Positions 10,651 through 34,444 of a DNA stretch of 64,000 nt are shown in pieces (within the stretch, counting starts at the first letter, position 1; the number at the start of each line of letters is the position of its first letter). A model generated the notes under the pieces. The model did no database searches and was not told the DNA's origin. It saw nothing but the letters and a program-made list of their open reading frames with translations. This DNA comes from Naegleria gruberi (taxonomy: Eukaryota): the NCBI GenBank assembly GCA_000004985.1, contig GG738926.1. The stretch is one strand, 5' to 3'. The position numbers were made by a program, and so were the translations under genes.

Positions 10651-11130
10651 TTTTTTATTTCAGATAATTAATTTTTAATGAAATGGATTTGATGAGTTCC
10701 CAATTTGGGGTTCTGAACTTGTTATTCAAACTGATGATACACAAACTACAGAAGAATGCTCTGAGAACAGTCATACGATTGTATTCTAAACTATCATACT
10801 CATTAAATATAACAATGCGAAACTCTGAAACACTGGATTTGCAGAGTTTCTTGAAGATCATTCCATTATTTAAATTGCTGCAGTGCCTGTTGATCTATTG
10901 TTGGGCTCAAAGAAGAATAAACAGTTTCGTTTTGTAGTGTATTTCGAATAAATCTTGTTTTCACAATTTAAACTAATGTTAAAGGACTAACTCTCTCAAC
11001 AACTCTTTCTTATTTGAATTGTCCTTTCTCAAAGTGGATGGGGATCAAGATTAGCATCAGCAACATGTCAAACTTTCGAATAAAAAACACTTCAAAAAAA
11101 TAGCGCAACCACAAGTTCATCTCTGTAGCC

Positions 11131-13116
11131 ATGTCATCCATGTGGCTTTCAAGTGCATCAACCATTGACATTTCTCATCTGGTGGTTTCAACTTCATATC
11201 AACTAAACGAAACCCTTTCGAATAATTCCACAAATTCAACAATATGCCATCCCATTCTCTTTCAATTGGGCAACTTTTCCCGCGAATCCACTCCACAAGA
11301 ACTCTACGGACTTTGCCCCGACGCTCTCACCACTCCAATCTTTAGTTCAATTTTATTATTTCTAATCATTCTCATGTCCATGGCCAGCATTTTAGGAATC
11401 ATTGCCTACAGACACAGTGGACACATCAAAGCCAGAGGTGCAACCACCATTTCCCTCTCAGTTTGTGTCCATCTGGTGTTCGTGTCCATTTTCTTCCTTC
11501 GTCTAATGATCGATCGAAAGACATTTCCGTGTGCAATTTATACATTGCTCTATTTTTTATTACCGGCAGCTGTTACATTACCCATGATATTGAGGTGCAT
11601 TCGTCTCTATTCAATGTACAAATTGAATTTAATCAAGACGAGGATATTTGATGTGGATGGAGTGGATTCGGTGAATGGTGGAGGTGGACGAAAGAAAACT
11701 AATGAAATGGTGAAGAAGGAAGAAATTGTGAGTTCAGTAGTGGAAATTGTGGAAGAATCGAACCATGTGGAAATGAAGAATTTTGAGAATCGTCAACATT
11801 CGGTTCATTTTGAAAAAGTGTTGAGTGAATCGACAATTAATCAAGAAACACCTTCTTCATTGAATACCACCTCAATAACTCATAACAGTTCATCCAATGT
11901 CGATTCTCTAAATAATTCAGGAATAGACGAAACTCTCAAGCAACAGGAAAATAATTTACAAATCTTGTCAGAGGTGAAGGGAACTCAATCGACTTTTGAC
12001 GTGAATGAAAATATTCACACCAATGATGAATCAACAGTGACTGACGATGAGGACATTACCAACACTTTCACATTGAATACTTCACGGTCAACTTGGAATC
12101 TTTCAGACATTAATTCAAAGGAAGTTCAATCACAAGCCAGAAAGCTCAATATTTTGACATTTATTTCATCGTACAAGTTTATGGTAATTTGCTATGCCTG
12201 TTTGCTGATTTTACAATTTTTGCTATGGCTTGGTTTGGGAGGAATTGAGGAGATTATTTTTACAGTTTCTCCTCCTGCAGATAATTCAAGAATTTTCCTA
12301 TTGGAAGGAGGAATGTTACTCTTCTCTCATGGATGCAGTATCAGTACCAAGTTTGTCATTATATTTGGAGTGATTACTGTCATTTACTTTATTATTGAGA
12401 TTGGTGCATTCATTTTGTGTCTGTTTGCTGATAGAGATACTTGGAATATTAAGAAGGAAACTGTCATTTTGCTAATTTTTCAAGTAATATGTCTACTCTT
12501 GTTTGTCATTACGGGAAATATTGACATTATTGTGATATTGACAGATTATTTTATTCCATACGGATATACCTTAATGATCTATTCCTATATTGAAATTCTG
12601 ATTTATTCCCTTATTCCAATAATGAGATCCATGTATGAAAATTACAAAAAGAAACGTCAGGTAAAATTCATGCAACAGGAGGCCTCAGAATTGAGCAAAT
12701 CAACAAGTTCCTACCATTTGAAACCTGTCCCATTGTCAGATGTCGAACGAGTTCTTATGAATAAGAGAACATTTAACATTGTTTTGGATTTTGGAAGAAG
12801 ATCCTATTGTGTGGAATCAGTTCTTGCATGGAGAGACATCCAGAGGTATCAAAAATCGAGAAGACATAGAAAGAAAATTGCCCAACACATTATTAGTACC
12901 TATTTAACAATTGGATCTCCTTTCGAATTGAATATTTCGAATATTGAAAAGAAACGATTGGAATACTCAACTATTATTGAGGAATCTAAGAAATTGGAAA
13001 GTTCTTTATTTGATTCTTTAGAATCACATTGTCTGTCAGATATGACAGATTTATTCGATCGGTTGAGATCATCAAATGCTGAAATTGATACCCTAGTCAA
13101 GTCATTTAAAAACTAA
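11131..13116 (+). CDS. 7TM receptor-like protein with C-terminal RGS domain, 661 aa
   Basis: Single exon. Seven predicted TM helices include IFSSILLFLIILMSMASILGIIAY and YGYTLMIYSYIEILIYSLIPIM. A long S/T/N-rich loop sits between TM3 and TM4. The C-terminal ~130 aa match RGS-fold signatures (F..VLDFGRRSYCVESVLAWRDIQRY ... LFDSLESHCLSDMTDLFDRLRSS). It is a paralog of the minus-strand gene at 1..1565. Confidence 0.7.
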   Translation: MSSMWLSSASTIDISHLVVSTSYQLNETLSNNSTNSTICHPILFQLGNFSRESTPQELYGLCPDALTTPIFSSILLFLIILMSMASILGIIAYRHSGHIKARGATTISLSVCVHLVFVSIFFLRLMIDRKTFPCAIYTLLYFLLPAAVTLPMILRCIRLYSMYKLNLIKTRIFDVDGVDSVNGGGGRKKTNEMVKKEEIVSSVVEIVEESNHVEMKNFENRQHSVHFEKVLSESTINQETPSSLNTTSITHNSSSNVDSLNNSGIDETLKQQENNLQILSEVKGTQSTFDVNENIHTNDESTVTDDEDITNTFTLNTSRSTWNLSDINSKEVQSQARKLNILTFISSYKFMVICYACLLILQFLLWLGLGGIEEIIFTVSPPADNSRIFLLEGGMLLFSHGCSISTKFVIIFGVITVIYFIIEIGAFILCLFADRDTWNIKKETVILLIFQVICLLLFVITGNIDIIVILTDYFIPYGYTLMIYSYIEILIYSLIPIMRSMYENYKKKRQVKFMQQEASELSKSTSSYHLKPVPLSDVERVLMNKRTFNIVLDFGRRSYCVESVLAWRDIQRYQKSRRHRKKIAQHIISTYLTIGSPFELNISNIEKKRLEYSTIIEESKKLESSLFDSLESHCLSDMTDLFDRLRSSNAEIDTLVKSFKN

Positions 13117-17180: not shown

Positions 17181-18176
17181 ATGTACACTAATGAAAATAC
17201 CTTTAGCGACAATACTGATGAAGAATTGTTTGACTTTAATTTTGGTTTTCCGTTAACTCATGATGATGAACAAGTATTGTCAACAACCACTGAATATTTA
17301 GGTAGCTTCCAACAACAAAAAGAACATTTACAAGAAGATTTTTCAACAACTTCAGTTGATTCTGTCTTTGTTGATGATCAAGATTTGGTTGATGGTTTTG
17401 CTGCTTTGGAGCAACAAGAAGCTCAACTTATGAGCAATTTGCATGCTTTTGTCTCCATGTATTCTACAGTAGAGATGGATATTCTTGTTGATCAATATTC
17501 ATTAGCTTCACCAACAACAAGAACTTTCCTCAGTCTTGATCAAAACACTTCTCCTGAAAGTGTTGTCGATCAAGTTGTTATTGGCAAGAAGTCTTCCAAA
17601 GACATCTCCAAAGGAAAGTTTGAACACTCTTCGTTTGTGGAAAAGAGAACCAAGAAGGCAAAGAAATCAGAAGAGCAATCGATCAAGAAACGTGCAAAGA
17701 AGTCTTCTCCTGATTTATGGGAACACACAAAATTCTCTGAGAGTGCACCTTACTTTGAGATTGTCACTGATGTGAAGGAGATGGAGCTGATTCTTGAAGT
17801 AGCTCAAACAAAACGAAGACAAAATGGTCCACTAAATTCAGATAAGAATGATATTGTCCATTACTGTGATTTGTCGTACAAGATTGAACAATTGGATATC
17901 AACAAGGTAAATTATGTTTCCCTTAAAGGTTTACTTGATAAGAAGACCATTTACAATGGTGAAAAGTCATCCAAAAGTTATACATGGATTAGATTGAAGG
18001 GTACGTCAGAGTACTTCTTTTTATATTGCCAAACTGGCAAAACCAATGCTGTTCATAACATCATGTCAATCAACAATACTGAACTGGTCAGTACAAGATC
18101 TGACCATCTCTCTAAATATTCTGCAAAATGTTCTGACACTGTCAGAATCATAGGTCCAAAACAAACCAAGTACTAA
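17181..18176 (+). CDS. Hypothetical protein, acidic N-terminus with a basic KKRAKK (NLS-like) middle, 331 aa
   Basis: Single ORF with a real ATG. I recognise no domain. Confidence 0.5.
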   Translation: MYTNENTFSDNTDEELFDFNFGFPLTHDDEQVLSTTTEYLGSFQQQKEHLQEDFSTTSVDSVFVDDQDLVDGFAALEQQEAQLMSNLHAFVSMYSTVEMDILVDQYSLASPTTRTFLSLDQNTSPESVVDQVVIGKKSSKDISKGKFEHSSFVEKRTKKAKKSEEQSIKKRAKKSSPDLWEHTKFSESAPYFEIVTDVKEMELILEVAQTKRRQNGPLNSDKNDIVHYCDLSYKIEQLDINKVNYVSLKGLLDKKTIYNGEKSSKSYTWIRLKGTSEYFFLYCQTGKTNAVHNIMSINNTELVSTRSDHLSKYSAKCSDTVRIIGPKQTKY

Positions 18177-18903: not shown

Positions 18904-20585
18904 TTGAAAATGCTCAATACAACACTTCATAAACAGAAAAAGAAGGTGAGCAAGAAATCTCAACCTAAAATTCACCAAATTACCATCTCTAAATATATCA
19001 ATGATAAATATGCTCTAAAATCTGTTGAATTGGGAACTGGTTCCTTTGGGGATGTTTATTTGGGAGAGGAAACAGATCCGATCACTAGAAAGAAGAGAGA
19101 TGTGGCTATTAAGAGAGTGAGATTGGAAAGATATGGTCCTGAACATTTCAAATATTTGGTGGCAGAAATTGAAATTATGGCTGGTTGTCAAAATGAGTTT
19201 GTCATGTCACTTGTTGATAAAATTGAAATTCCAAGAAAGGAACTCTATTTGGTAATGGACTTGTGTGAGGCAAATTTTAAATATTACATGAATAATGCAC
19301 GAAAGAGGAGGCAAGATAAGAGATTGCCTTTACTTTCAGAGAAGGAAATTCAATATTGGATAAAACAAATTAGTAGTGGATTGGGATATTTACATTTGGA
19401 AAAGAAGATTTGCCATCGTGATATTAAACCACATAATTTGCTACTCAAGAAAAAGGGTCACGAAGTTGCTTTTGATTTCTATGCCAAGATTGGAAATTAT
19501 GATGAATATACCATTCTGATTAGTGACTTTGGTCTTTCCAAAGTGTTGGATAGCAATCCAATTGCAGAGACAATTCTTGGAACTCAATGTTATAGATCTC
19601 CACAGCTGGCACTCTTCCAACCATACTCATTCGATGCAGATATATTTGCTTTGGGTGTGGTGCTGTTTGAAATGATTGCTGGTTACTGCTTGTTTGGTGC
19701 TCAAGTTACTAATCCAAAGCCAAAATATGGTGAAATTATTAGTACTTTAACAGAGAATATTGACTGGAGCTTTTTATCTGATGCACTTGATATTTCTCCA
19801 GAGCTGGTAGATCTTCTCTCTGGCATGTTACAATTTGAAGTGGAGAAACGTTTGAATATTGAACAAATTTTGCAACATCCCTTCCTTAATATGGATTTTT
19901 CAGAAAGTGAAGTTACTACTACCAGGTCATTCCATCTGAAACTATACCAACTGTATCATATATTGAAATTCCTCTTACTACCACTACTACAACTGACAAT
20001 GATTCTCCAAACAACTCAACTCAACAACAGCAACAAGTTCCTGTACAAATTATACTACCAACCAGCGAGGAAGAAAAAGAAAAAGAATTGCCAGTTAACG
20101 AACCAATCCAAGTAATACAGTTGGAACGTGATGAGCCAACTCCTACAACCTTTTCAGAATTTGTCTCCTTCTCCTATGAAAGAGTTGGACTGCCCCAAGA
20201 TTATACACGAGTAAGCATTATCAAGGATGAGATTGGTTGTGAACCTGCCCTTGTTAAAACTGAAAAAATTTCCAAGAGCAAACACTCCAAAGTTCTCATT
20301 CTTCTCAGCAGTGACAGCAACAAGGCAATTAATTATTCAATCAAGGTACTAGAGTCGCCAGTCAAACACACACAAACAGGAACAGTTTCTTCTACTGTGG
20401 AATATGAATTGGAGAATATTGAAATGGAAATGATTACTCTAGAGTTTGAATTTACTCATTCTCTCACCAACAGATGGCTTTCTTATTTCACAACTCCAGA
20501 ACAGATTCCATTCACTATTGAAATTTATGTTCAATCGAGAATTCCAGAACATACCTCAACTCTTTCTATTGAATCAATCAATTAA
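18904..20585 (+). CDS. Cytoplasmic Ser/Thr protein kinase with a T/S/Q-rich C-terminal tail; the reading frame switches near 19911-20066
   Basis: The kinase domain is in the frame of ORF 18904..20115 (GTGSFGDVYLG, AIKRV, HRDIKPHNLL, DFGLSK, SPQLA). After ..SESEVTTT that frame degenerates into low-complexity junk. A second frame stays open from 19911 to 20585 with a plausible tail (..IPSETIPTVSYIEIPLTTTTTT..QQQQQ..EEEKEKELPVNEPIQ..) and has no ATG of its own. I read it as one gene with either an unusual intron or an indel. Confidence 0.55.
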
Positions 20586-20907: not shown

Positions 20908-21720
20908 ATGTCACTACGGGACACTATGCGTGAATATAGAAAGGCCACTTTCACCATCTTTGCAGGAATTGGCCTCATTATCTTTGGATTCATCGTTGGA
21001 TTCGTCAGTATTGCCCTGGGAGTCCTCTTCCTCTACACTCCAAGTGATTATTCGTATTCGTCTTCCAAATCCGATTCTGAACTATTTAAATGGGCTGTGA
21101 GTGCTGGTGCATTTGGATTTTGTTGTATCATTGCTGGATATTCAATGATTGGAGGTGGATGCAGAATGTGTTTCTCAAGTTGTTCCGAATGTTGTTCGAA
21201 TGGATGTGGACGAATGGATTGTAGTGATTTTGAGTGTTGTGATTGTGGGTCATGTTGCTCAGATTATTGTTGGAGTTTGGGAGAAATGATGAAGAGTTGT
21301 TGTGGATGTTGTGTTGGAAAGGTAGCAGAGAATCAAGTTTCGTATAATATGGATTCGTATGAGGCGAGTCGTCAGGAACATACTATTGTGCATTTGGTGT
21401 ATGAAAATAATGAAACGAAGGAGGAAATTCCATTGGAAGTTCTTCAAATGCAACAACAACAATTATCAGTGCAACCAATTCATGCTGCAGATGTGAAAAT
21501 TCAAAATCCAAACGTTCCAGCTGAAGATTCTGATAATAATTATTCGAATGATCATCAATATGGTGGATTTAGTGGAGTTGTTGCACCACCTATTCAAGAA
21601 GAACCAACTGTTTCTTCTGCATTTGTGCAAGTTGGCATAGTTGACCAAGCAATGGTTGAATATCATAGATCTGAATCTAATAATGAAGTGATGGAAATCA
21701 ATGCTCCAACACAAGTTTAA
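20908..21720 (+). CDS. Cys-rich two-TM membrane protein, 270 aa
   Basis: The ORF starts at a real ATG. Two TM helices are predicted (IFAGIGLIIFGFIVGFVSIALGVLFLY; AFGFCCIIAGYSMIGGG). A dense CC/CxxC cluster follows (CRMCFSSCSECCSNGCGRMDCSDFECCDCGSCCSDYCW..SCCGCCVGK). Confidence 0.55.
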   Translation: MSLRDTMREYRKATFTIFAGIGLIIFGFIVGFVSIALGVLFLYTPSDYSYSSSKSDSELFKWAVSAGAFGFCCIIAGYSMIGGGCRMCFSSCSECCSNGCGRMDCSDFECCDCGSCCSDYCWSLGEMMKSCCGCCVGKVAENQVSYNMDSYEASRQEHTIVHLVYENNETKEEIPLEVLQMQQQQLSVQPIHAADVKIQNPNVPAEDSDNNYSNDHQYGGFSGVVAPPIQEEPTVSSAFVQVGIVDQAMVEYHRSESNNEVMEINAPTQV

Positions 21721-22887: not shown

Positions 22888-25800
22888 ATGAAACTATTAA
22901 ACTTGTTTATTTTTCTAATATTATTTCCCACACTAATTTATTCATCATCCGCAGAGGATACGAGAAATTATTCCAGCTCATCCATTAATAATTCGAATAA
23001 TTTTCCTTCATCCTCTTTGAAAACTAATGTTGTTAACTATTCGAAAGGAATTAATTTACAAATAATTTATTACATTAATTCTGATGATGTCAAATATCAG
23101 AATACAACTTGTCAAGACGAAAGTCATCCATGTTCAGATATGAACCAAGTGATCTTGGCAGCAAATACGAAACTATTCGAAATATTTCATGAAAATGATC
23201 AAACTAAATTAGATTCTTTTACAATGATTGTCATGATTGATTCGAAATTGGAATGTAACAAACTGCTCTTTGATTTTTCAAATTATACGAAACGATTCGA
23301 AATGAGGTGGAAAGGATACGAAAATGGTTTATTCTCTGCTTGTCTAAATAGTTTAGATGAAAATTCCATTTTAGATGCTTTCACTGTTGAGAATGGAAAG
23401 ATTTCAGGCGAATTGAATAATAGATTAGGTATCAAGAATTTGGAAATTCGAAACTGTCACGATGGTGGAATGATTTACTTTTATACTAAAATAGAAAATT
23501 TGCTGATTGCTGACAGTTTCTTTCATGAAGATACTGAAATAACTGAGATTACAAATGTACGAGTGGAAAATACGCAATTGGATGATTTTGAAATTGTTTC
23601 GAATGGAGCAAGTGTTGAAATTTCAAATTCTAAAATTCAAGGAATTGTTGATTTGCAGAATTTTAAATCATTTTCTATTCGAAACTCAATTTGGAAAAAT
23701 AACCGAGTTCATGAGGATTATTCATCAACATTTAATTTAGGACAAGATGTTTCATTTGATAATGTAACAACTAATGCTAAAATTGTGTTTATTTCAATCA
23801 AGTCAATCAAGATGAATGGGCTAATTGTACACAATTATGGAAACGGATATTTCTTGTATCAAATGATACGAGTTTCTCATTTCTATCTAAGCAACAGTTC
23901 GTTTGTGGGAAATTTCGTGCTCAACAACTATTTACTCTCCTTGCAAATAGTTGAATCTATACAAATTGAAAATTGTACAGTTTCTAATAATGTTGGAGGT
24001 TTCATCATGGTAACAGATGCTACTTTGATAATGGGACAGGTGAATATACGAATTAGTAAGAGTGTATTTCAATCCAACGAGATGCTGTCAGATATTGCTC
24101 TAATTGACATTGTGGATCAAACAAGAGAGATGTATTTTATCACAGTTGACCATTGTAAATTTTTGGAAAATACAGGAGAATCCACTTTACACATTGATGG
24201 AGGACTTGCCCAAATTTCCAATTCAGACTTCTACTTTAATATTGCAAACGAACATGGTACTGCATACTTGAATTGCTATGTTACAATTTCAAACTCTAAA
24301 TTCATCGCTAATCAAGCCAAGTTAGGAGGAGCCATTTACATTGGTCCTGCTGGAAATATTGATGCATCTCAAACAATTGATTTTACTTGTGATAATAATT
24401 GGGCAACCTACGCTGGAGGATGCATTTATTCAGAAAATTTGGATTTTTCAAAATTGAAACGCATGAATGGAACTAATATTGCTAAATATTATGGAAATGA
24501 TGTGGCCACACCTATTGTGAGTCTGGATGCTACATTTGATGAGGTAGATTCTAATGGAAATATTGAGGTTTACCCAGGTCAAGCATTCCAAATTAATTTT
24601 TTCCCAAGAGACAAGTTCAATCAGAGCACCTCTTATTTATTGAATCAATATTTGTTTATCAATTCAGAAAAAGGTCATTTTACAATCTCTCAGAATTTTT
24701 TAGATGGAATCCATTCTATTCCAGTAGTTTTGCAAATATTTCCAATTGACGACTACAACCCATCATTGCCACCACTTGTAATATTGATTTCTTCAAAAAT
24801 TGAAATCAAAATTCCTGTAAATATTCTCCCATGTCCAGATAGTTCTTTCCTGAAATTATCTCAAAATGGACATTACTGTGAACAAATTCCATTAGCAGCG
24901 ATTCTGTCATCTGTAATTTTGGGAATTATTTTGATAACCATTATATTGGCAGCATTAATAGTGATAGCTAGGAAATTATTGAAATTGAGAAAACAGGAAC
25001 GTGCTGAAAAGAAAATGGAGCTATTGTTCAAAGATAAGGAATTTATATTCGAAACAGAACAAGCACCTCTATTACTTTCTAATACCATCAACAGTAGTGA
25101 TTCAGGTGAAAGTAGATCAATAATTGGAAACAGGCAACAATACATCATTCCAATTTCTGAAATTAATATTTTGAAAAGAATAGGAGAAGGTGGAATGGGT
25201 GTCGTATATCACGCGAAGTGGAATCGAACTGATGTTGCCATCAAACAATTGAAAACAGATTCCAATGATGAAGAATTCGAAAATGAAGCAATTTTAATGA
25301 GCTCACTTCGACATCCATGTATTGTGAGCTGTTTTGGAGTTTCTCTGACAACCAATGGAAAATATATGATTGTAGAATATTTGGAAAATGGAAGTCTAGA
25401 AAAGGCAATTTATAATTCAAAGATGGGAAGAGCAATTTTGAGATTTGAAACCAAGTTGAAAATATTAACTGATGTTGCCAAAGGATTAGTTTATTTACAT
25501 TCAATCAAACCTCATAGAATTATTCATAGGTATGTTTACTACTTTTATTGGAATAGATATTAATTATGGAATAGAGATTTGAAACCAGGAAATTTATTAC
25601 TCGATAAGAATATGAATGCAAAAGTTGGGGATTTTGGATTGAGCAAAATTGTTTCGAATAATTCTGCAACAATGACAGCAAATGTAGGAACTTTACTTTA
25701 CATGGTAAGTCTAGATAATTTCACAAATTGAATTAAATTGTTATCAATTTAGGCGCCAGTAAGTAATTTCGAAATTTAATTTATTAAAATTTCGAATATT

Positions 25801-26217
25801 TTACAATAGGAATTACTTTCGAATGATCACAAAGGTCAAAGTACAAAAGTGGACGTTTATTCATTTGGAATTATTATGTGGGAAATTTTATTCGAAGAAT
25901 CACCATTTTCAAATGAAATTGATGGTTTCACTAATGTTTTCCAAATATTGAAGAAAGTTACAAAAGGTCATCGACCACCCTTACTATTCGAAACTAGTGC
26001 TTTATTGGAGGCAGATAGAAATCAGAAAGTTGATGAATGGATTGATCATAACTTTACAAAGAAACAAATCGAAACTATTGGAAAGGAAAATATTTCTAAA
26101 TTATATGAATCATATATAGAAATTATGGAACACTGTTGGAATCATGACGCATCTAAAAGACCTGAATTTATTGAAATTACAGATCAATTAGAAACCTTGC
26201 AATCGAACTTTGCTTAA
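22888..26217 (+). CDS. Receptor protein kinase (TKL-like) with a beta-helix-like ectodomain; 4 exons including a 6-nt microexon
   Basis: Exons are 22888..25529, 25575..25704, 25753..25758 and 25810..26217. The introns are 25530..25574 (GTATGT..AG), 25705..25752 and 25759..25809 (both GTAAGT..AG). It has a signal peptide and about 640 aa of NxS/T-rich repeats reminiscent of a parallel beta-helix. The TM helix is [25 protein letters not shown]. The kinase domain reads [21 protein letters not shown]|[21 protein letters not shown]|AP|ELL. Confidence 0.75.
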
Positions 26218-26248
26218 TTTCCTTTTCCAATCTTTTTTCAAAGGTTTA

Positions 26249-26944
26249 TTATTTCTTATTATTATTAATGTCACTAAATTCATAGATTCCATTTCCATAT
26301 TGTGCCATTTCTTGCATGTTAGGTGCAGAACCTGACCCAATTCCAGTAAAATGGAATGCATCTCTAATAGATTTAAAGGCATCAACAGAGCTGATATCCT
26401 GAATATGACCATCACACATAATCAAAATATTTTCAATCTTTGGAAATTTCCTAAAAGTTTGGTTTAGGGCTTGTTTAAGCAAAGTATTACCCAATAATGG
26501 AACTGACCACACATTAAGAAATTGGTTTAGAGCATCCAAATCAGTAGGTTCAATTGTGTCTCCGTGTTTAAACCACTCAGTTGTAGATCCCCATAAGGCA
26601 ATGGAAATTTTTAGATCTCCAGTATTAAACGCCTTGGATTGAACAAAATTATTAAAACAATCAATTAAAGTTTTGAAAGGAGATCCTTTCATTGATACGG
26701 AAGCATCACCCAGAATAACAATCTGGCCCTCTTCAATGATAGATGATCCAGCAAGTTTTGAATTCTTACTGGTTGTCTTGAGAGAGGTATTGATTTTCAA
26801 AGCATCTGCTCTAGTGGTCACTTGAGCTGGTTCAATAATCTTTGAATTCACCTCGATACCAAAAGAAGGTATTTTCCTTTGGAACATTGTGCTTTGAGCG
26901 TTTAATATTGGTTCTGGCATCAGGTTATTATGATTATGATCCAT
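26249..26944 (-). CDS. von Willebrand factor type A (vWA) domain protein, 231 aa
   Basis: Real ATG at 26942-26944. A MIDAS-like motif is present (IVILGDASVSM, i.e. DxSxS) with the downstream hydrophobic beta-strand pattern of a vWA fold. The stop lies 31 bp from the stop of the convergent receptor kinase. Confidence 0.6.
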   Translation of the reverse strand: MDHNHNNLMPEPILNAQSTMFQRKIPSFGIEVNSKIIEPAQVTTRADALKINTSLKTTSKNSKLAGSSIIEEGQIVILGDASVSMKGSPFKTLIDCFNNFVQSKAFNTGDLKISIALWGSTTEWFKHGDTIEPTDLDALNQFLNVWSVPLLGNTLLKQALNQTFRKFPKIENILIMCDGHIQDISSVDAFKSIRDAFHFTGIGSGSAPNMQEMAQYGNGIYEFSDINNNKK

Positions 26945-27011
26945 GGACCTACTACTTACTTTTCAGCATCTTTGTTCTTCTTGTCAATGTCTTCTACGTT
27001 GTTCTTGACAG

Positions 27012-28160: not shown

Positions 28161-28308
28161 ATCACAACAATTAATCATCAATTCTACAACATATGATCTT
28201 ATATTCAATTGTTCATAGATGAAATAATTGCCCTTCATCACAAAAATTAATCATATCAATTCTACAACTTGTGATCTTATATTAAATTGTTCATAGATGA
28301 AATAATTG
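28161..28308. repeat. Tandem direct repeat, 2 copies of about 70-72 bp (period 76), about 450-600 bp upstream of the pyruvate carboxylase ATG
   Basis: Copy 1 is 28161..28230 (atcacaacaattaatcatcaattctacaacatatgatcttatattcaattgttcatagatgaaataattg). Copy 2 is 28237..28308, about 90% identical, with a 2-nt insertion and a few substitutions. Confidence 0.8.
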
Positions 28309-28769
28309 ATCAGCCTCGGCAAATTAGATTAGTCCCCACCTTCACAATGGCATAAACAATCTCATCATTAGCAACCAACTTTCTATTATGTTGCAAAAGG
28401 GCCTGAAAAAGATCTTGAAAATTCGCGAAAGATTTTCGCTTATTTTTACAATGAACACTCGATTCGGATTTTTGAGGAGAATAACAAGCAAGAAATTGAG
28501 CGAGTACAGAGATAAGCTATTTTGTAAACTCGAGTTGTCTGTATTGGTTGGCGACTTTTAGGATTAATTTGGCCAGTAGGAAGTGTTCACCTACTCTCTC
28601 TCTTTCCACAACTGCAGTTGTTGTTGTGAAAACATTTCACAAACAAAAAAACACAACGAAAACACACTTGTCAATTTGTTGCTGTTGATCAAAGAATTTC
28701 AAATTTTGTAAAATAGGTAAGCTAATTTGAAAAGAGCTTCTTGAGATTTATAATTTGATCAAACTATTT

Positions 28770-31700
28770 ATGAAACCAAACACCAATGTGGATCATTATC
28801 AAAAAAAGGACCACATCAAGTCAATCACAACAAGAATGAAGAAAGTTTGTTTATCCAAGTCAACTTCATCCTCTACCTCTGCCAAACTCAATTTTGCTAT
28901 TCAAAAGCATAAGAAGAATGGTAATTCATCTTCAATCTTTAACAGATCTACTCCAATTTCCTTCTCCAACACTGACTATATTCAACAATTATATCGTCAA
29001 TATGGAACCACAAGAATCTCCTTGAAGGAATTTGAAAAGTTGCTTGTGGCCAACAGAGGTGAAATTGCCACGAGAATTTTACGTTCTGCCCACGAAATTG
29101 GTTGCAGAACTGTTTCGATTTATGCAAAACAAGATGCTTCCTCTGTGCATCGTTACAAAGCAGATGGTAAGTTGTTTTATTTGAATATGTTATTATAATA
29201 ATTGATCGTATTTTGTAATAATATTTGATGAAATAATTGTAAAAATTCCGATCAATAGAAAGTTACTTGATCGGAAAGGACAAGGAATTAGGTCCAGTTG
29301 AAGCTTACTTGAGCATTGATGAGATTATTAAAATTGCCAAGGAGAATGGAGTTGATGCCATTCACCCTGGTTATGGATTTCTTTCAGAGAGAGCTGATTT
29401 TGCACGTGCTTGTTCTGAAAATGGTATTCAATTCATTGGTCCAGTAAGTATTTCATGTGATTGCAATAATATATTTAACAAATTGTTGGTAGACTGCTGA
29501 TGTTGTTGAATCTTTTGGTGACAAGACAAGAGCTAGAAAGGTTGCTACTGATATTGGAATTCCTGTTGTTCCTGGAACTCCAACTGTAAGTATTCTATAC
29601 TTCTTTAATCCTTAATCGATTGTAAATTATTCAAATAACTTATGTTCATTCCTATTTATAATGAACTTGTCCAATTGACCAAAATATTAAGGCAGTAACA
29701 AGTATTGCAGAAGCCAAAACCTTCTGCTCCCAAATTTCCTTCCCAGTCATTTTGAAAGCTGCCATGGGAGGTGGTGGAAGAGGTATGAGAGTTGTTTCCA
29801 AAATGGAAGATTTAGAAGAAGCATTCCAAAGAGCTTCCTCTGAAGCTTTGAATGCTTTTGGTTCTTCAGCAATTTTCATTGAAAAGTTTGTTGAAAAGCC
29901 ACGTCACATTGAGGTTCAAATCTTGGCCGATAAGTTTGGAAATGTTGTTCACTTGTACGAAAGAGATTGTTCAGTGCAAAGAAGACATCAAAAAGTTGTT
30001 GAAATTGCTCCAGCTCCACATTTGAATCCTCAAGTGAGAGAAAAGATTTTGGCTGATGCTGTTCGTCTTGCTCGCCACGTCAAGTATCAAAATGCAGGAA
30101 CATTTGAGTTTTTAGTCGATTCTAATGGAAAGGATTATTACTTTATTGAAGTCAATCCACGTCTTCAAGTCGAACACACTGTTACTGAAGAAATTACAGG
30201 TGTTGACATTGTCCGTTCTCAAATCTTAATTGCCGAAGGAAAGAGTTTGGACGAAATTGGTTTAAAACAAGAAAGCATTTCAGTCAGAGGTTCTGCCATT
30301 CAATGTAGAGTTACCACTGAAGATCCATTGAATGGATTCCAACCAGATACTGGTGTATTGGAAGCTTTCAGAACTGGTGAAGGTATGGGTATTCGTTTGG
30401 ATATTGGTTCTGGTTATGTTGGATCAAAGGTTTGTTTTTTTAACACTTTACAAAATATTTAATTCTTCTCGTTCTTTCACATCAATAGATTACACCATTC
30501 TATGATTCGCTCCTTGTCAAGGTCATTGGTAAAGGTCTCACTCATGAAGAAGCTTCCAACAAATTGAGACGTGCCTTGGCTGAATTCAGAATTCGTGGTG
30601 TCAAACACAATATTCCATTCTTGCAAAAGGTCTTATCTCATGAAAAGTTCTTAAATGGTTATGTTGACACCTCATTCATTGATACTAACCCAGAACTCTT
30701 CCAATTCTCATCCAGTGGTAACAGAGCTCAAAAGCTCTTATCATTCTTGGCTGAAAATGTTGTCAATGGACCAACTACATTACTCGTCACTGATTTGGAA
30801 CCATCCAAGAAGAATCCAACTGTTCCAAAGACACCTACTGGTGCTCCTCCACGTGGCTGGAAACAAGTTCTCGATGAACAAGGTCCTGAAGCATTTGCAA
30901 AGGCCATTCGTGATAGAAGTGAATTGCTCATTACTGACACAACCATGAGAGATGCTCACCAAAGTTTATTGGCAACTCGTGTCAGAACCAGAGATTTAAT
31001 GTCTATTGCTCCATATACTGCTCACGCCATGTCAGATTGTCTTTCATTGGAAATGGGAGGTGGTGCAACCTTTGATGTTTGTTTGAACTTTTTGAGAGAA
31101 TGTCCATTCGAAAGATTGGCTAAGTTGAGAGAAGCCATTCCTAACATTCCATTCCAAATGTTATTCAGAGGTGCAAATGCTGTTGGTTACACTGCTTATC
31201 CAGATAATGTTGTTTACAAATATTGTAAGAAAACAGTTGAACATGGTATGGACATTTTCAGAATCTTTGACTCATTGAACTATGTTCCAAATATGGAGTT
31301 GGGTATTGATGCTGTTGGTAGCGCTGGTGGCGTTATTGAAGCAGCCATTAGTTATACAGGAGATGTCAGTGATCCTAAAAAGTCCAAGTATAATTTGGAA
31401 TATTATTTGAAAGTTGCCAGATCACTTGTTGAAAAGGGAGTTCACATTTTGTGTATCAAAGACATGGCTGGTTTGTTGAGACCTAGTGCAGCAACCTTAT
31501 TGATTGGTGCTTTGAGAAAGGAATTCCCACACATTCCAATTCATCTTCACACTCACGATACTGCAGGAACTGGTGTTGCTACTTTATTGGCAGCTGCTGA
31601 AGCTGGTGCTGATATTGTTGACGCTGCTATTGATAGCATGTCAGGATTGACTAGTCAACCTAGTTTGGGAGCTATTGTTGCTTCATTGAAGAACACTCCA

Positions 31701-32845
31701 TTGGATACTAAATTGGATTTGGGTAAACTCTCCAAAGTTTCTGATTATTGGGAACAAGCCAGAGGATTGTATGCTCCATTCGAATGTACTACTACTTTGC
31801 GTTCTGGTTCTAGTGATGTTTATGTCCATGAAATTCCAGGAGGTCAATATACCAATTTGAATGCTCAAGTTTATTCCATCAATGGTTCACTTGGTAAGTT
31901 TAATTTTTTTACTTTCTAATAGCTAATTATTGTTTTTTTAAATATGAATATAATTTCAGATGGATTCCCTAAGGTTAAGGAATCATATGAAATTGCCAAT
32001 AGATTATTGGGAGATATCATCAAGGTCACACCAAGTAGTAAGGTTGTCGGTGATTTGGCTCAATTCATGGTTCAAAACAACTTGGCTGAAAAGGATGTTA
32101 TTGAAAAGGCCGATCAATTGTCATTCCCTAACTCTGTTCTCGAATATTTTGAAGTAAATTGGGTATTCCATATGGTGGTTTCCCAGAACCTTTGAGAACC
32201 AAGGTTATGAGAGGAAAACCATCCATTGAAGGAAGACCAGGTGCTAGCATGCCAGATTTTGACTTTGTCAAGTTGAAGGACAAGTTGAAGAAGGATTTGG
32301 ATTATGATGCCTCTGAAGAAGATTTGATTTCTTCATCTCTCTTCCCAAAGGTATTTGAGGAATATGTTCAATTCAAACAACAATATGGTGAGGTCACTAA
32401 TTTGGGAACTCGTCAATACTTTAAGGGAATTAAAGTTGGTGAAGAAACTGAAGTTGAATTAGAAAAGGGTAAAGTCTTACATATCAAATTGAAGGCCATT
32501 GGAGAAGTTGGAAGTGATGGTAAGAGAGAAGTTTTCTTTGAAGTAAATGGTCAATCACGTCTTGTTTTGGTTCAAGATAAGAAACTCTCCAAGACTATTC
32601 AAATCAGATCAAAGGCCAATAAGAAGGATCCAAATGAAATTGGAGCACCAATGCCAGGTAAAGTTATTGACATTAAAGTCAAGGAAGGTGATAAGGTCAA
32701 GAAGGGAGATACTTTATTGGTCCAAAGTGCCATGAAGATGGAAACTCAAGTCAAGTGTAACTTTGATGGTATTATCAAATCACTTGGTGTTAAGGTTGGT
32801 GATGAAGTTCAAGGTGGAGATTTGTTATGTATTGTTTCTCAATAA
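28770..32845 (+). CDS. Pyruvate carboxylase (biotin carboxylase + carboxyltransferase + biotinyl domains), 7 coding segments
   Basis: Exons are 28770..29166, 29259..29443, 29493..29585, 29692..30429, 30489..31893 and 31960..about 32153, then a frame-shifted continuation of about 32155..32845. The introns all start GTAAGT, or GTTTGT at 30430. It opens with an N-terminal mitochondrial-type presequence. The motifs are [89 protein letters not shown] and AMKMET (biotin attachment). There is a 1-nt frame discontinuity at 32151..32161 (see findings). Confidence 0.85.
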
Positions 32846-32862
32846 ATTATTATTATCTTTCG

Positions 32863-34275
32863 TTAAAATTGGCTTGACTGGAGCAAATTTGTCTTACATC
32901 GACTTGATATTTCAGAATACATTTCAGAATACCAACTTTCTGGCAGGGCACCTTGGAGAGCCATTTTGTTCATCAGTTCGGTATCATCCAAATATTTCAA
33001 ATTTCCCAATCCAAATAATTGTTCTTTTCGTTGATTGAATTCTTGTTGTGAGAAACGCCACATGAAACCCTTCTCCCTGGCCAAGTTTACAAAGAAATAA
33101 TCGTCAATGAGTGAGGGATGGACATATCTCAGAACTGCAATGTTTTCCTGAACTAATTCTTTGACTAGCTCTAGATTAGTTTGAAGCTCTTCGGAGGCGT
33201 ATTCAATTGAGCGAGGTTGATTTTTGACAGCCTCTGTGAGGATTTCAAAGTTATTGATAATTTTTGGATAGGATTTTAGATATTTCAAAATCAAGCCATT
33301 AATGGAGGCAAATCTTAATATGAGATCAGGAGATCTCTTAACTTTTCTATGAACAAATTCGAATAATCTGATATCCTTTCGAATAACATATTCTATAATA
33401 TCCAAATCCCTTTTAATGAATCCAGGAGCAACTCTGAAAGCTTGAGGATTGACCATTATCAACCTACGCATAAATCTTCCACTATTTCTGAGTTTCTTTG
33501 AAATACTTGGCACTAAACCAGGAGACAACACACAAGCCATGTGTATAATTTCTCTATCTTCTGAAAATTCAGATAAAATAATTTCCAAAAATGTTTTACA
33601 CGACCCAATCAATTGTGTGTAATTTTCCATGATTTTCAGAATGAGATCTCTATTATCCTCAATGAAAAATTCAACAGGTATATATGAAATAGCCTTTGGA
33701 TATTGTCTCAATAGTTCCATTACAATATCTGGATCGAAGGAGAAAGGTTTCGGCAGTGAGAAATAATTAATGGCATCATGGCAGACCAATTGTAAAGCAT
33801 CCAATCTCTTAATGGACTTGTTTTTGAGAGGTTTCACTGTAATGGGACGATCCATAAATATCTTTTCAAGGTTAATTTCATCAGTGATAATTTGAAATTG
33901 TTGAATGGCAGGTGAATTTCTAAACAATTTACTGACAGCTCGCTGGATTTCAGGACTGAGTGCATAATTATATGTAAAATAGTCATGAGTAGTGAAAAAC
34001 TTGGCCAGGAATGTAAAACTCTTCGAATACTCAATTGGAATGTAATCATAATCTCTCGACATGTCCTTCCAAAATTTTCTGGGAAGAGAAAACTTCTCTC
34101 GGAGCCAACTAAATTGTTCCGAATACTTTTCCTGACAAAAATCTATAAGTATAACAACTGTAGAATAATCAGTGTTATTCCCAACCGATGCCGATGAAGA
34201 ATATTTGGTAAATTTGGTCGACGGTTGGAATTCGTTTTTTTCGAGTTGATTTTCTGCTGTTCGCTTTTTGTGCAT
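32863..34275 (-). CDS. Repeat protein with DUF4116-like repeats (about 470 aa)
   Basis: The real ATG is at 34273-34275 (the track ORF starts at an upstream TTG). The recurrent motif ..A(V/I)(K/S)..P..I.Y(A/I)S.EL(Q/R)..(L/R)E(L/I)V..(L/A)V.. (e.g. AVKNQPRSIEYASEELQTNLELVKELVQENIAVLRYVHPSL) resembles DUF4116 repeats. This assignment is from memory of that family. Confidence 0.55.
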   Translation of the reverse strand: MHKKRTAENQLEKNEFQPSTKFTKYSSSASVGNNTDYSTVVILIDFCQEKYSEQFSWLREKFSLPRKFWKDMSRDYDYIPIEYSKSFTFLAKFFTTHDYFTYNYALSPEIQRAVSKLFRNSPAIQQFQIITDEINLEKIFMDRPITVKPLKNKSIKRLDALQLVCHDAINYFSLPKPFSFDPDIVMELLRQYPKAISYIPVEFFIEDNRDLILKIMENYTQLIGSCKTFLEIILSEFSEDREIIHMACVLSPGLVPSISKKLRNSGRFMRRLIMVNPQAFRVAPGFIKRDLDIIEYVIRKDIRLFEFVHRKVKRSPDLILRFASINGLILKYLKSYPKIINNFEILTEAVKNQPRSIEYASEELQTNLELVKELVQENIAVLRYVHPSLIDDYFFVNLAREKGFMWRFSQQEFNQRKEQLFGLGNLKYLDDTELMNKMALQGALPESWYSEMYSEISSRCKTNLLQSSQF

Positions 34276-34444
34276 TTTTTTGGTTTTTTTTGGAATTTTG
34301 TTTTGTTTGAAGGTTTGCAGAAAATTTTGCAAAACTCAAATTGTCAATAATCAAATGAATTAATGAAGAAATAATTGATTTTAAAATCATGGAGTTGTAG
34401 ATATTTGTGTAACTTAAAGATTGAATGCAAAAAATCTTGGTGGT

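Follow-up and report, generated by a model that had tools for sequence, protein, structure and literature searches.

The pyruvate carboxylase (PC) gene of Naegleria gruberi NEG-M, as it stands in the reference genome, carries a confirmed break in its reading frame within the last of six exons, and a single added G restores the enzyme, this being the sole disabling lesion in the gene. We consider it probable, from comparison of the sequence with its relatives, that one G of a GG pair was dropped from the NEG-M draft consensus at 32153/32154, i.e. that the break is an assembly artefact. Base calling or consensus building, rather than the organism, would then have lost one G of the Gly983 codon GGT, and this loss would split the last PC exon between two reading frames. 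The sequence analysed (hereafter the window) is a stretch of 64,000 nucleotides (GenBank assembly GCA_000004985.1, contig GG738926.1), to which all coordinates refer; features lie on the given (+) strand unless marked (-).

The PC gene and its repaired product

Frame-by-frame translation and splice-site placement give a PC gene at 28836..32845 (+), with exons at 28836-29166, 29259-29443, 29493-29585, 29692-30429, 30489-31893 and 31960-32845. The introns between them measure 92, 49, 106, 59 and 66 nt; four start with GTAAGT, one starts with GTTTGT, and all end in AG. Exon 6 and the true stop of the gene end at 32845. Assembled to 32848, the six-exon model gives a spliced coding sequence of 3641 nt (3n+2), which one more base brings to 3n.

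With one G added after 32154, the gene encodes a PC of 1212 aa with no other defect. This protein is 76% identical to Willaertia magna PC and 81% identical to Naegleria fowleri PC (P0128) over the full 1212 aa, and shares with the latter the domain order and the peptide at the break site. The N. fowleri protein is uninterrupted, whereas the N. gruberi reference DNA is without one G of a Gly codon. Pfam profiles matched the repaired protein above their cut-offs for Biotin_carb_N (PF00289, residues 66-176, 140 bits), the ATP-grasp domain CPSase_L_D2 (PF02786, residues 182-391, 262 bits), Biotin_carb_C (PF02785, residues 407-514, 113 bits), the carboxyltransferase TIM barrel HMGL-like (PF00682, 64 bits) and Biotin_lipoyl (PF00364, residues 1144-1209). 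It takes the repair to cover the PYC_OADA domain in full (PF02436, residues 893-1094, profile positions 1-201 of 201, 239 bits), because the break (residue 982/983) falls inside it. The AMKMET biotinylation motif pointed out in an earlier reading of the sequence alone (the sequence-only reading) was located at 32729-32746 (+) and contains the biotinyl-Lys1177; it lies in the +2 frame and can be reached only in the repaired frame.

All the modules of a single-chain PC (EC 6.4.1.1), namely biotin carboxylase, carboxyltransferase/PYC_OADA and biotin carrier, are found in the repaired protein, and the sequence-only reading was right in calling the gene otherwise intact. Judged by its domain content, the locus is an ordinary, otherwise intact gene for a single-chain PC of the mitochondrial type, an uninterrupted frame being the one PC feature that it lacks. 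A separate peculiarity is seen in exon 5 (~31020-31060, residues ~640-650), where both N. gruberi and N. fowleri have Gly in place of Trp in a conserved carboxyltransferase motif. At this site Willaertia, animal and other aligned PCs read SLExWGGATFDV.

The frame break in exon 6

Read directly, the window at 32140-32170 is tcgaatattttgaagtaaattgggtattcca, and the codons ctc gaa tat ttt gaa gta aat tgg gta ttc span the break. Exon 6 is in frame 0 at 31960..32153 (+), a part that ends in SVLEYFE with Glu982, as placed by translation and homologue alignment. Beyond it, translation and Pfam show an out-of-frame tail (32154..32195, +) that closes with a premature TGA at 32193-32195. The conserved C-terminus of PC (32159..32845, +; 228 codons) is in the +2 frame, in which sit both SAMKMETQV and the terminal VSQ, followed by the TAA at 32843-45. 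Translation therefore bears out what the sequence-only reading had described, that is, a break at 32140-32170 with frame 0 soon stopping and a conserved continuation from 32159 in the +2 frame. Its count was also correct: only 5 nt (GTAAA) lie between GAA (32151-53) and TTG (32159-61), where 6 are expected. Since the +2-frame codon at 32150-52 is TGA, the switch between frames is confined to 32153-32159.

The downstream 228-aa ORF matches PC in protein searches with E-values of 1e-147 to 1e-100. We also aligned the repaired exon-6 product to solved alpha4 single-chain PCs (Listeria 4QSL/4QSH, human 3BG3/7WTA, S. aureus 3BG5 and R. etli 2QF7). The alignments, with E = 1e-91 to 1e-58, are gap-free over ~290 residues of the C-terminal part (CT/PT and BCCP) and show ordinary divergence only; the window as written stops in the middle of PYC_OADA. 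These matches, gap-free on the structures, mean that the break is not a chance arrangement of frames. The break in the window's PC gene is real: after splicing, the window gives no single uninterrupted PC frame, while a sister strain (described below) has an intact frame at the same site. As written, the gene encodes 995 aa without half of PYC_OADA and without the whole biotin-carrier domain, and since Lys1177 is lost with that domain the product would be inactive.

Homologues and a sister strain

A search with the exon-5 protein returned a 99% identical protein from ENA (P0254), and through it the contig L003 (ENA ERZ929261, run ERR1078381, project PRJEB11402). This metagenome contig of 7886 bp comes from an N. 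gruberi-type strain that was sequenced and assembled independently; its DNA identity is 97.7% with window 28253-32346 and 98.6% with 24216-26235. As it differs from NEG-M by ~2%, it shows the normal state of the species and not NEG-M's own. A literature search found no paper citing PRJEB11402. The submission ERZ929261 is labelled 'metagenome', and many of its contigs (L003, L004 and L005 among them) follow the N. gruberi scaffold collinearly with an identity of 97-99%; it thus has substantial genome coverage of the N. gruberi-type strain.

At the break, L003 has GAAGGTAAATTG (E-G-K-L) where the window has GAA-GTAAATTG, and in the pairwise alignment the two do not otherwise differ between 32120 and 32200. 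An L003 ORF of 134 aa crosses the site in one frame and runs up to the contig end. The sequence-only reading had proposed that a GG has lost one G, the return of which would give E-G-K-L; L003 holds precisely that sequence. The missing-base site can thus be set at 32153..32154 (+), where the L003 alignment and an alignment of 10 PCs place A-G-T in the window against A-G-G-T in the sister strain. The lost G belongs to the codon GGT of an invariant Gly (Gly983 in the repaired PC).

The comparison with PCs of related species that the sequence-only reading had proposed agrees with L003, as all relatives are in frame with two residues at the site. In N. fowleri the peptide is identical to that of L003, a more distant Logan/ENA relative (L001) has GAAGGAAAGATC, which reads EGKIG, and Willaertia has SGDIG. 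The human peptide quoted in the sequence-only reading, EFLQGYIGVPHGGFPEP, was found as such in the homologue alignment. Altogether, every one of the nine homologues aligned with the N. gruberi protein has two residues at the break site, the first always Gly.

Of the codon differences between the window and L003 over the PC exons, 28 are synonymous and 4 non-synonymous. Three lie on the 3' side of the break (32204, 32276 and 32330), and all of these are synonymous third-position changes in the repaired frame. Going by these substitutions, strong purifying selection acts on PC in the N. gruberi lineage, also on the part lying out of frame in the window.

L003 has a lesion of its own. Within PC exon 5 it drops 1 nt (L003 7240-7265, corresponding to window 31706-31724, with the loss at window 31715). 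Three differences cluster here, the window having TTGGATTTGGGTAAA and L003 having TTG-ATTTGAGCAAA, which leads to TKLI* in L003. A MEGAHIT or low-coverage error probably accounts for the loss. Neither assembly is therefore free of errors.

Splicing, pseudogene and split-enzyme readings

The sequence GTAAAT at 32154 looks like the local donor consensus GTAAGT, and could hint at an unrecognised intron or alternative splice across the break. This reading, like that of an old pseudogene, seems to us very improbable. The conserved LGIPYGG begins 5 nt after that GT, so that conserved residues would be lost with any such intron, and the frame could be restored only by removing 3k+2 nt; the homologue alignment has no extra residues upstream. 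Moreover, L003 runs through this stretch unbroken and in frame, and hence no intron is possible, as the sequence-only reading had argued in stating that none fits. A bridging spliceosomal intron was also rejected on geometry: the conserved E982 and L985 are only 5 nt apart, the alignment is gap-free on both sides, and local introns have 49-106 nt.

As to the old pseudogene, a lone lesion and the strong synonymous bias stand against it, and purifying selection on PC, extending to the out-of-frame part, excludes it. A test for a unitary pseudogene likewise failed (a single lesion and no relaxed constraint), a result with which a very recent inactivation is compatible.

A PC split into two subunits was rejected by inference from three features. 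The break lies inside PYC_OADA instead of between domains, the conserved region has already run for 16 codons at the first downstream in-frame ATG, and reinitiation after an ORF of 995 codons is implausible in a eukaryote.

Recoding

The 5-nt spacing could also be genuine, with the ribosome making a programmed -1 frameshift at GUA-AAU-U (giving EYFEVNLGIPYGG) or with a G being inserted in the transcript. A -1 shift after AAT would keep the length of the protein, and a short stretch is open to it, bounded by one TGA in the target frame (32150-52) and another in frame 0 (32193-95). As in known programmed -1 frameshifting, the frames overlap and require a -1 (or +2) shift. What is absent is the rest of the signature, i.e. 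heptamer, structure and conservation in relatives. No X XXY YYZ slippery heptamer is found in GAAGTAAATTGG, the permissive stretch being 32153-32159 (A GTA AAT). The 120 nt downstream have a minimum free energy of -29 kcal/mol, where shuffles average -25.2 (z = -1.16), and 26 of 200 shuffles are as stable. The shift is not seen in L003, N. fowleri, Willaertia or the Logan/ENA relative, and its product would have the invariant Gly replaced. For slippage during transcription, the longest run (AAA) is too short.

We rejected programmed -1 frameshifting on these three failures (slippery heptamer, stimulatory structure and conservation) and regard recoding of either kind as extremely doubtful. It would be most surprising, then, if NEG-M made a functional PC by -1 recoding at GUA-AAU-U or by co-transcriptional insertion of a G. 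The frame break is best classed as no real biological feature, and it belongs to no class of recoding.

A second frame break and other genes in the window

A protein-kinase gene (about 18904-20585, +) has a second 1-nt frame break at ~19914-19925 (~19922), revealed by comparison with L005. (L004 and L005, which were also compared with the window, come from the same sister strain as L003.) Here the window reads ACTACTACCAGG and L005 reads ACTACTACTCAGG. In L005 the kinase is a single ORF of 558 aa with a Pkinase domain; in the window it is split into an ORF of 403 aa and a frame-shifted ORF of 224 aa that is ~98% identical to the C-terminus of the L005 protein.

Other differences between NEG-M and the sister strain were seen in long ORFs at 26252-26962 (-) and 11104-13113 (+), which have in-frame indels of 3, 6, 6 and 15 nt. 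The first of these, a stop-to-stop ORF, contains two more 1-nt differences (26790 and 26955), and the L003 region matching it is called as two ORFs, one of them with a VWA_3 domain. On the strand opposite to PC, and 18 nt beyond its stop, lies an intronless ORF of 489 codons (32863-34332, -), whose product had no exact match in the protein collection with either a TTG or an ATG start.

Eight of the window's intronless ORFs match N. gruberi proteins exactly (EFC36720-22, EFC36724, EFC36727, EFC36753, EFC36754 and EFC36762), all on one scaffold of 174,974 bp, and this identifies the window as the NEG-M reference. Two of these proteins have close counterparts on small scaffolds: EFC35585 (7,530-bp scaffold) is at least 90% identical to EFC36722, and EFC35226 (1,127-bp scaffold) is at least 90% identical to EFC36724, the window regions concerned being 17181-18176 and 20908-21720. 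These small extra NEG-M scaffolds are probably haplotigs or recent duplicates.

Draft error or deletion in NEG-M

The sequence-only reading had left the cause between an assembly or sequencing deletion and a genuine frameshift. We keep both, with the evidence leaning to the artefact. The NEG-M genome is a Sanger whole-genome shotgun draft of roughly 8x, which also weighs towards the artefact. The PC break resembles consensus indels of draft shotgun assemblies in that a conserved gene, intact in all else, has lost a single base, as inferred here from the comparison with the sister strain. The kinase break (~19922), found against the same sister strain, makes two frame-breaking 1-nt losses in the ~18 kb compared. 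A second loss specific to the window favours errors of the draft consensus, and the observed rate of loss matches a draft consensus accuracy of ~1e-4. Against an artefact count the window sequence close to the break, which has no Ns, gaps or other marks of low quality, and the site itself, which is only a 2-base GG run and no classic site of homopolymer error. The 1-nt loss that L003 itself has in exon 5 likewise tells against certainty. A search of JGI metagenomes for the exact DNA pattern, with G or GG allowed at the break, gave 0 matches.

The deletion may instead be real in NEG-M, either as a null allele that the assembler chanced to choose from a heterozygous diploid (or polyploid) genome, or as a mutation fixed in the long-cultured axenic line. 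The allele would then encode the 995-aa protein, which has no biotin carrier domain, and hence give no PC activity. We think this unlikely, though it has several points in its favour. The given sequence does carry the break, between clean flanks with no Ns, and a very recent mutation predicts the exact pattern observed, with everything else intact. Naegleria is reported to be, for the most part, a heterozygous diploid with changes of ploidy in culture (PMC9928731), which, together with the age of the axenic line, makes a real null allele plausible, and the NEG-M assembly has haplotig-like small duplicate scaffolds (those of EFC35585 and EFC35226). A rich axenic medium could, in addition, relax the need for anaplerosis. 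On the other hand, two frame-breaking losses per ~18 kb would, if real, amount to thousands of null alleles genome-wide. Extrapolated in this way, the rate is better explained by errors of the draft consensus than by real null mutations. The strong purifying selection on PC between strains also argues against a real deletion, as does the finding that N. fowleri PC (UniProt A0A6A5C7J0) has been detected as protein (PMC9312180), by which the enzyme is in use in the genus.

Consequences for the reference proteome and for NEG-M

Protein searches and exact look-ups in NCBI, UniProt and EukProt returned no N. gruberi PC protein, a result that an N-terminal-only model of up to 450 aa would escape. 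The look-ups used 30 sequences derived from the window, comprising neighbouring ORFs and candidate PC products. None of the latter had an exact match, i.e. the 228-aa and 212-aa C-terminal products, the 83-aa frameshifted product, the repaired 300-aa last-exon product, the exon-wise ORFs and the 995-aa and 1212-aa proteins. A literature search on N. gruberi PC and the UniProt entries D2W2J4-8 found nothing useful. Neighbouring N. gruberi proteins are present in the same protein collection, so the reference proteome seems to miss or truncate PC. We conclude that it probably lacks, or has in badly truncated form, this central anaplerotic enzyme, and that one base is probably the cause of the gap.

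The importance of the finding is mainly practical. Metabolic reconstructions and proteomics searches based on the NEG-M proteome would miss PC, for which the present analysis provides a corrected 1212-aa sequence and a gene model. The two breaks suggest that single-base indels are not rare in the NEG-M assembly, and with a second broken gene in the same window, apparent gene losses and truncations in N. gruberi need checking before they are interpreted. Were recoding true, it would represent an unknown nuclear recoding mechanism in Heterolobosea. If the deletion is real, the standard laboratory strain would be PC-deficient or heterozygous for a null allele, which would bear on studies of the lipid-based energy metabolism of NEG-M.
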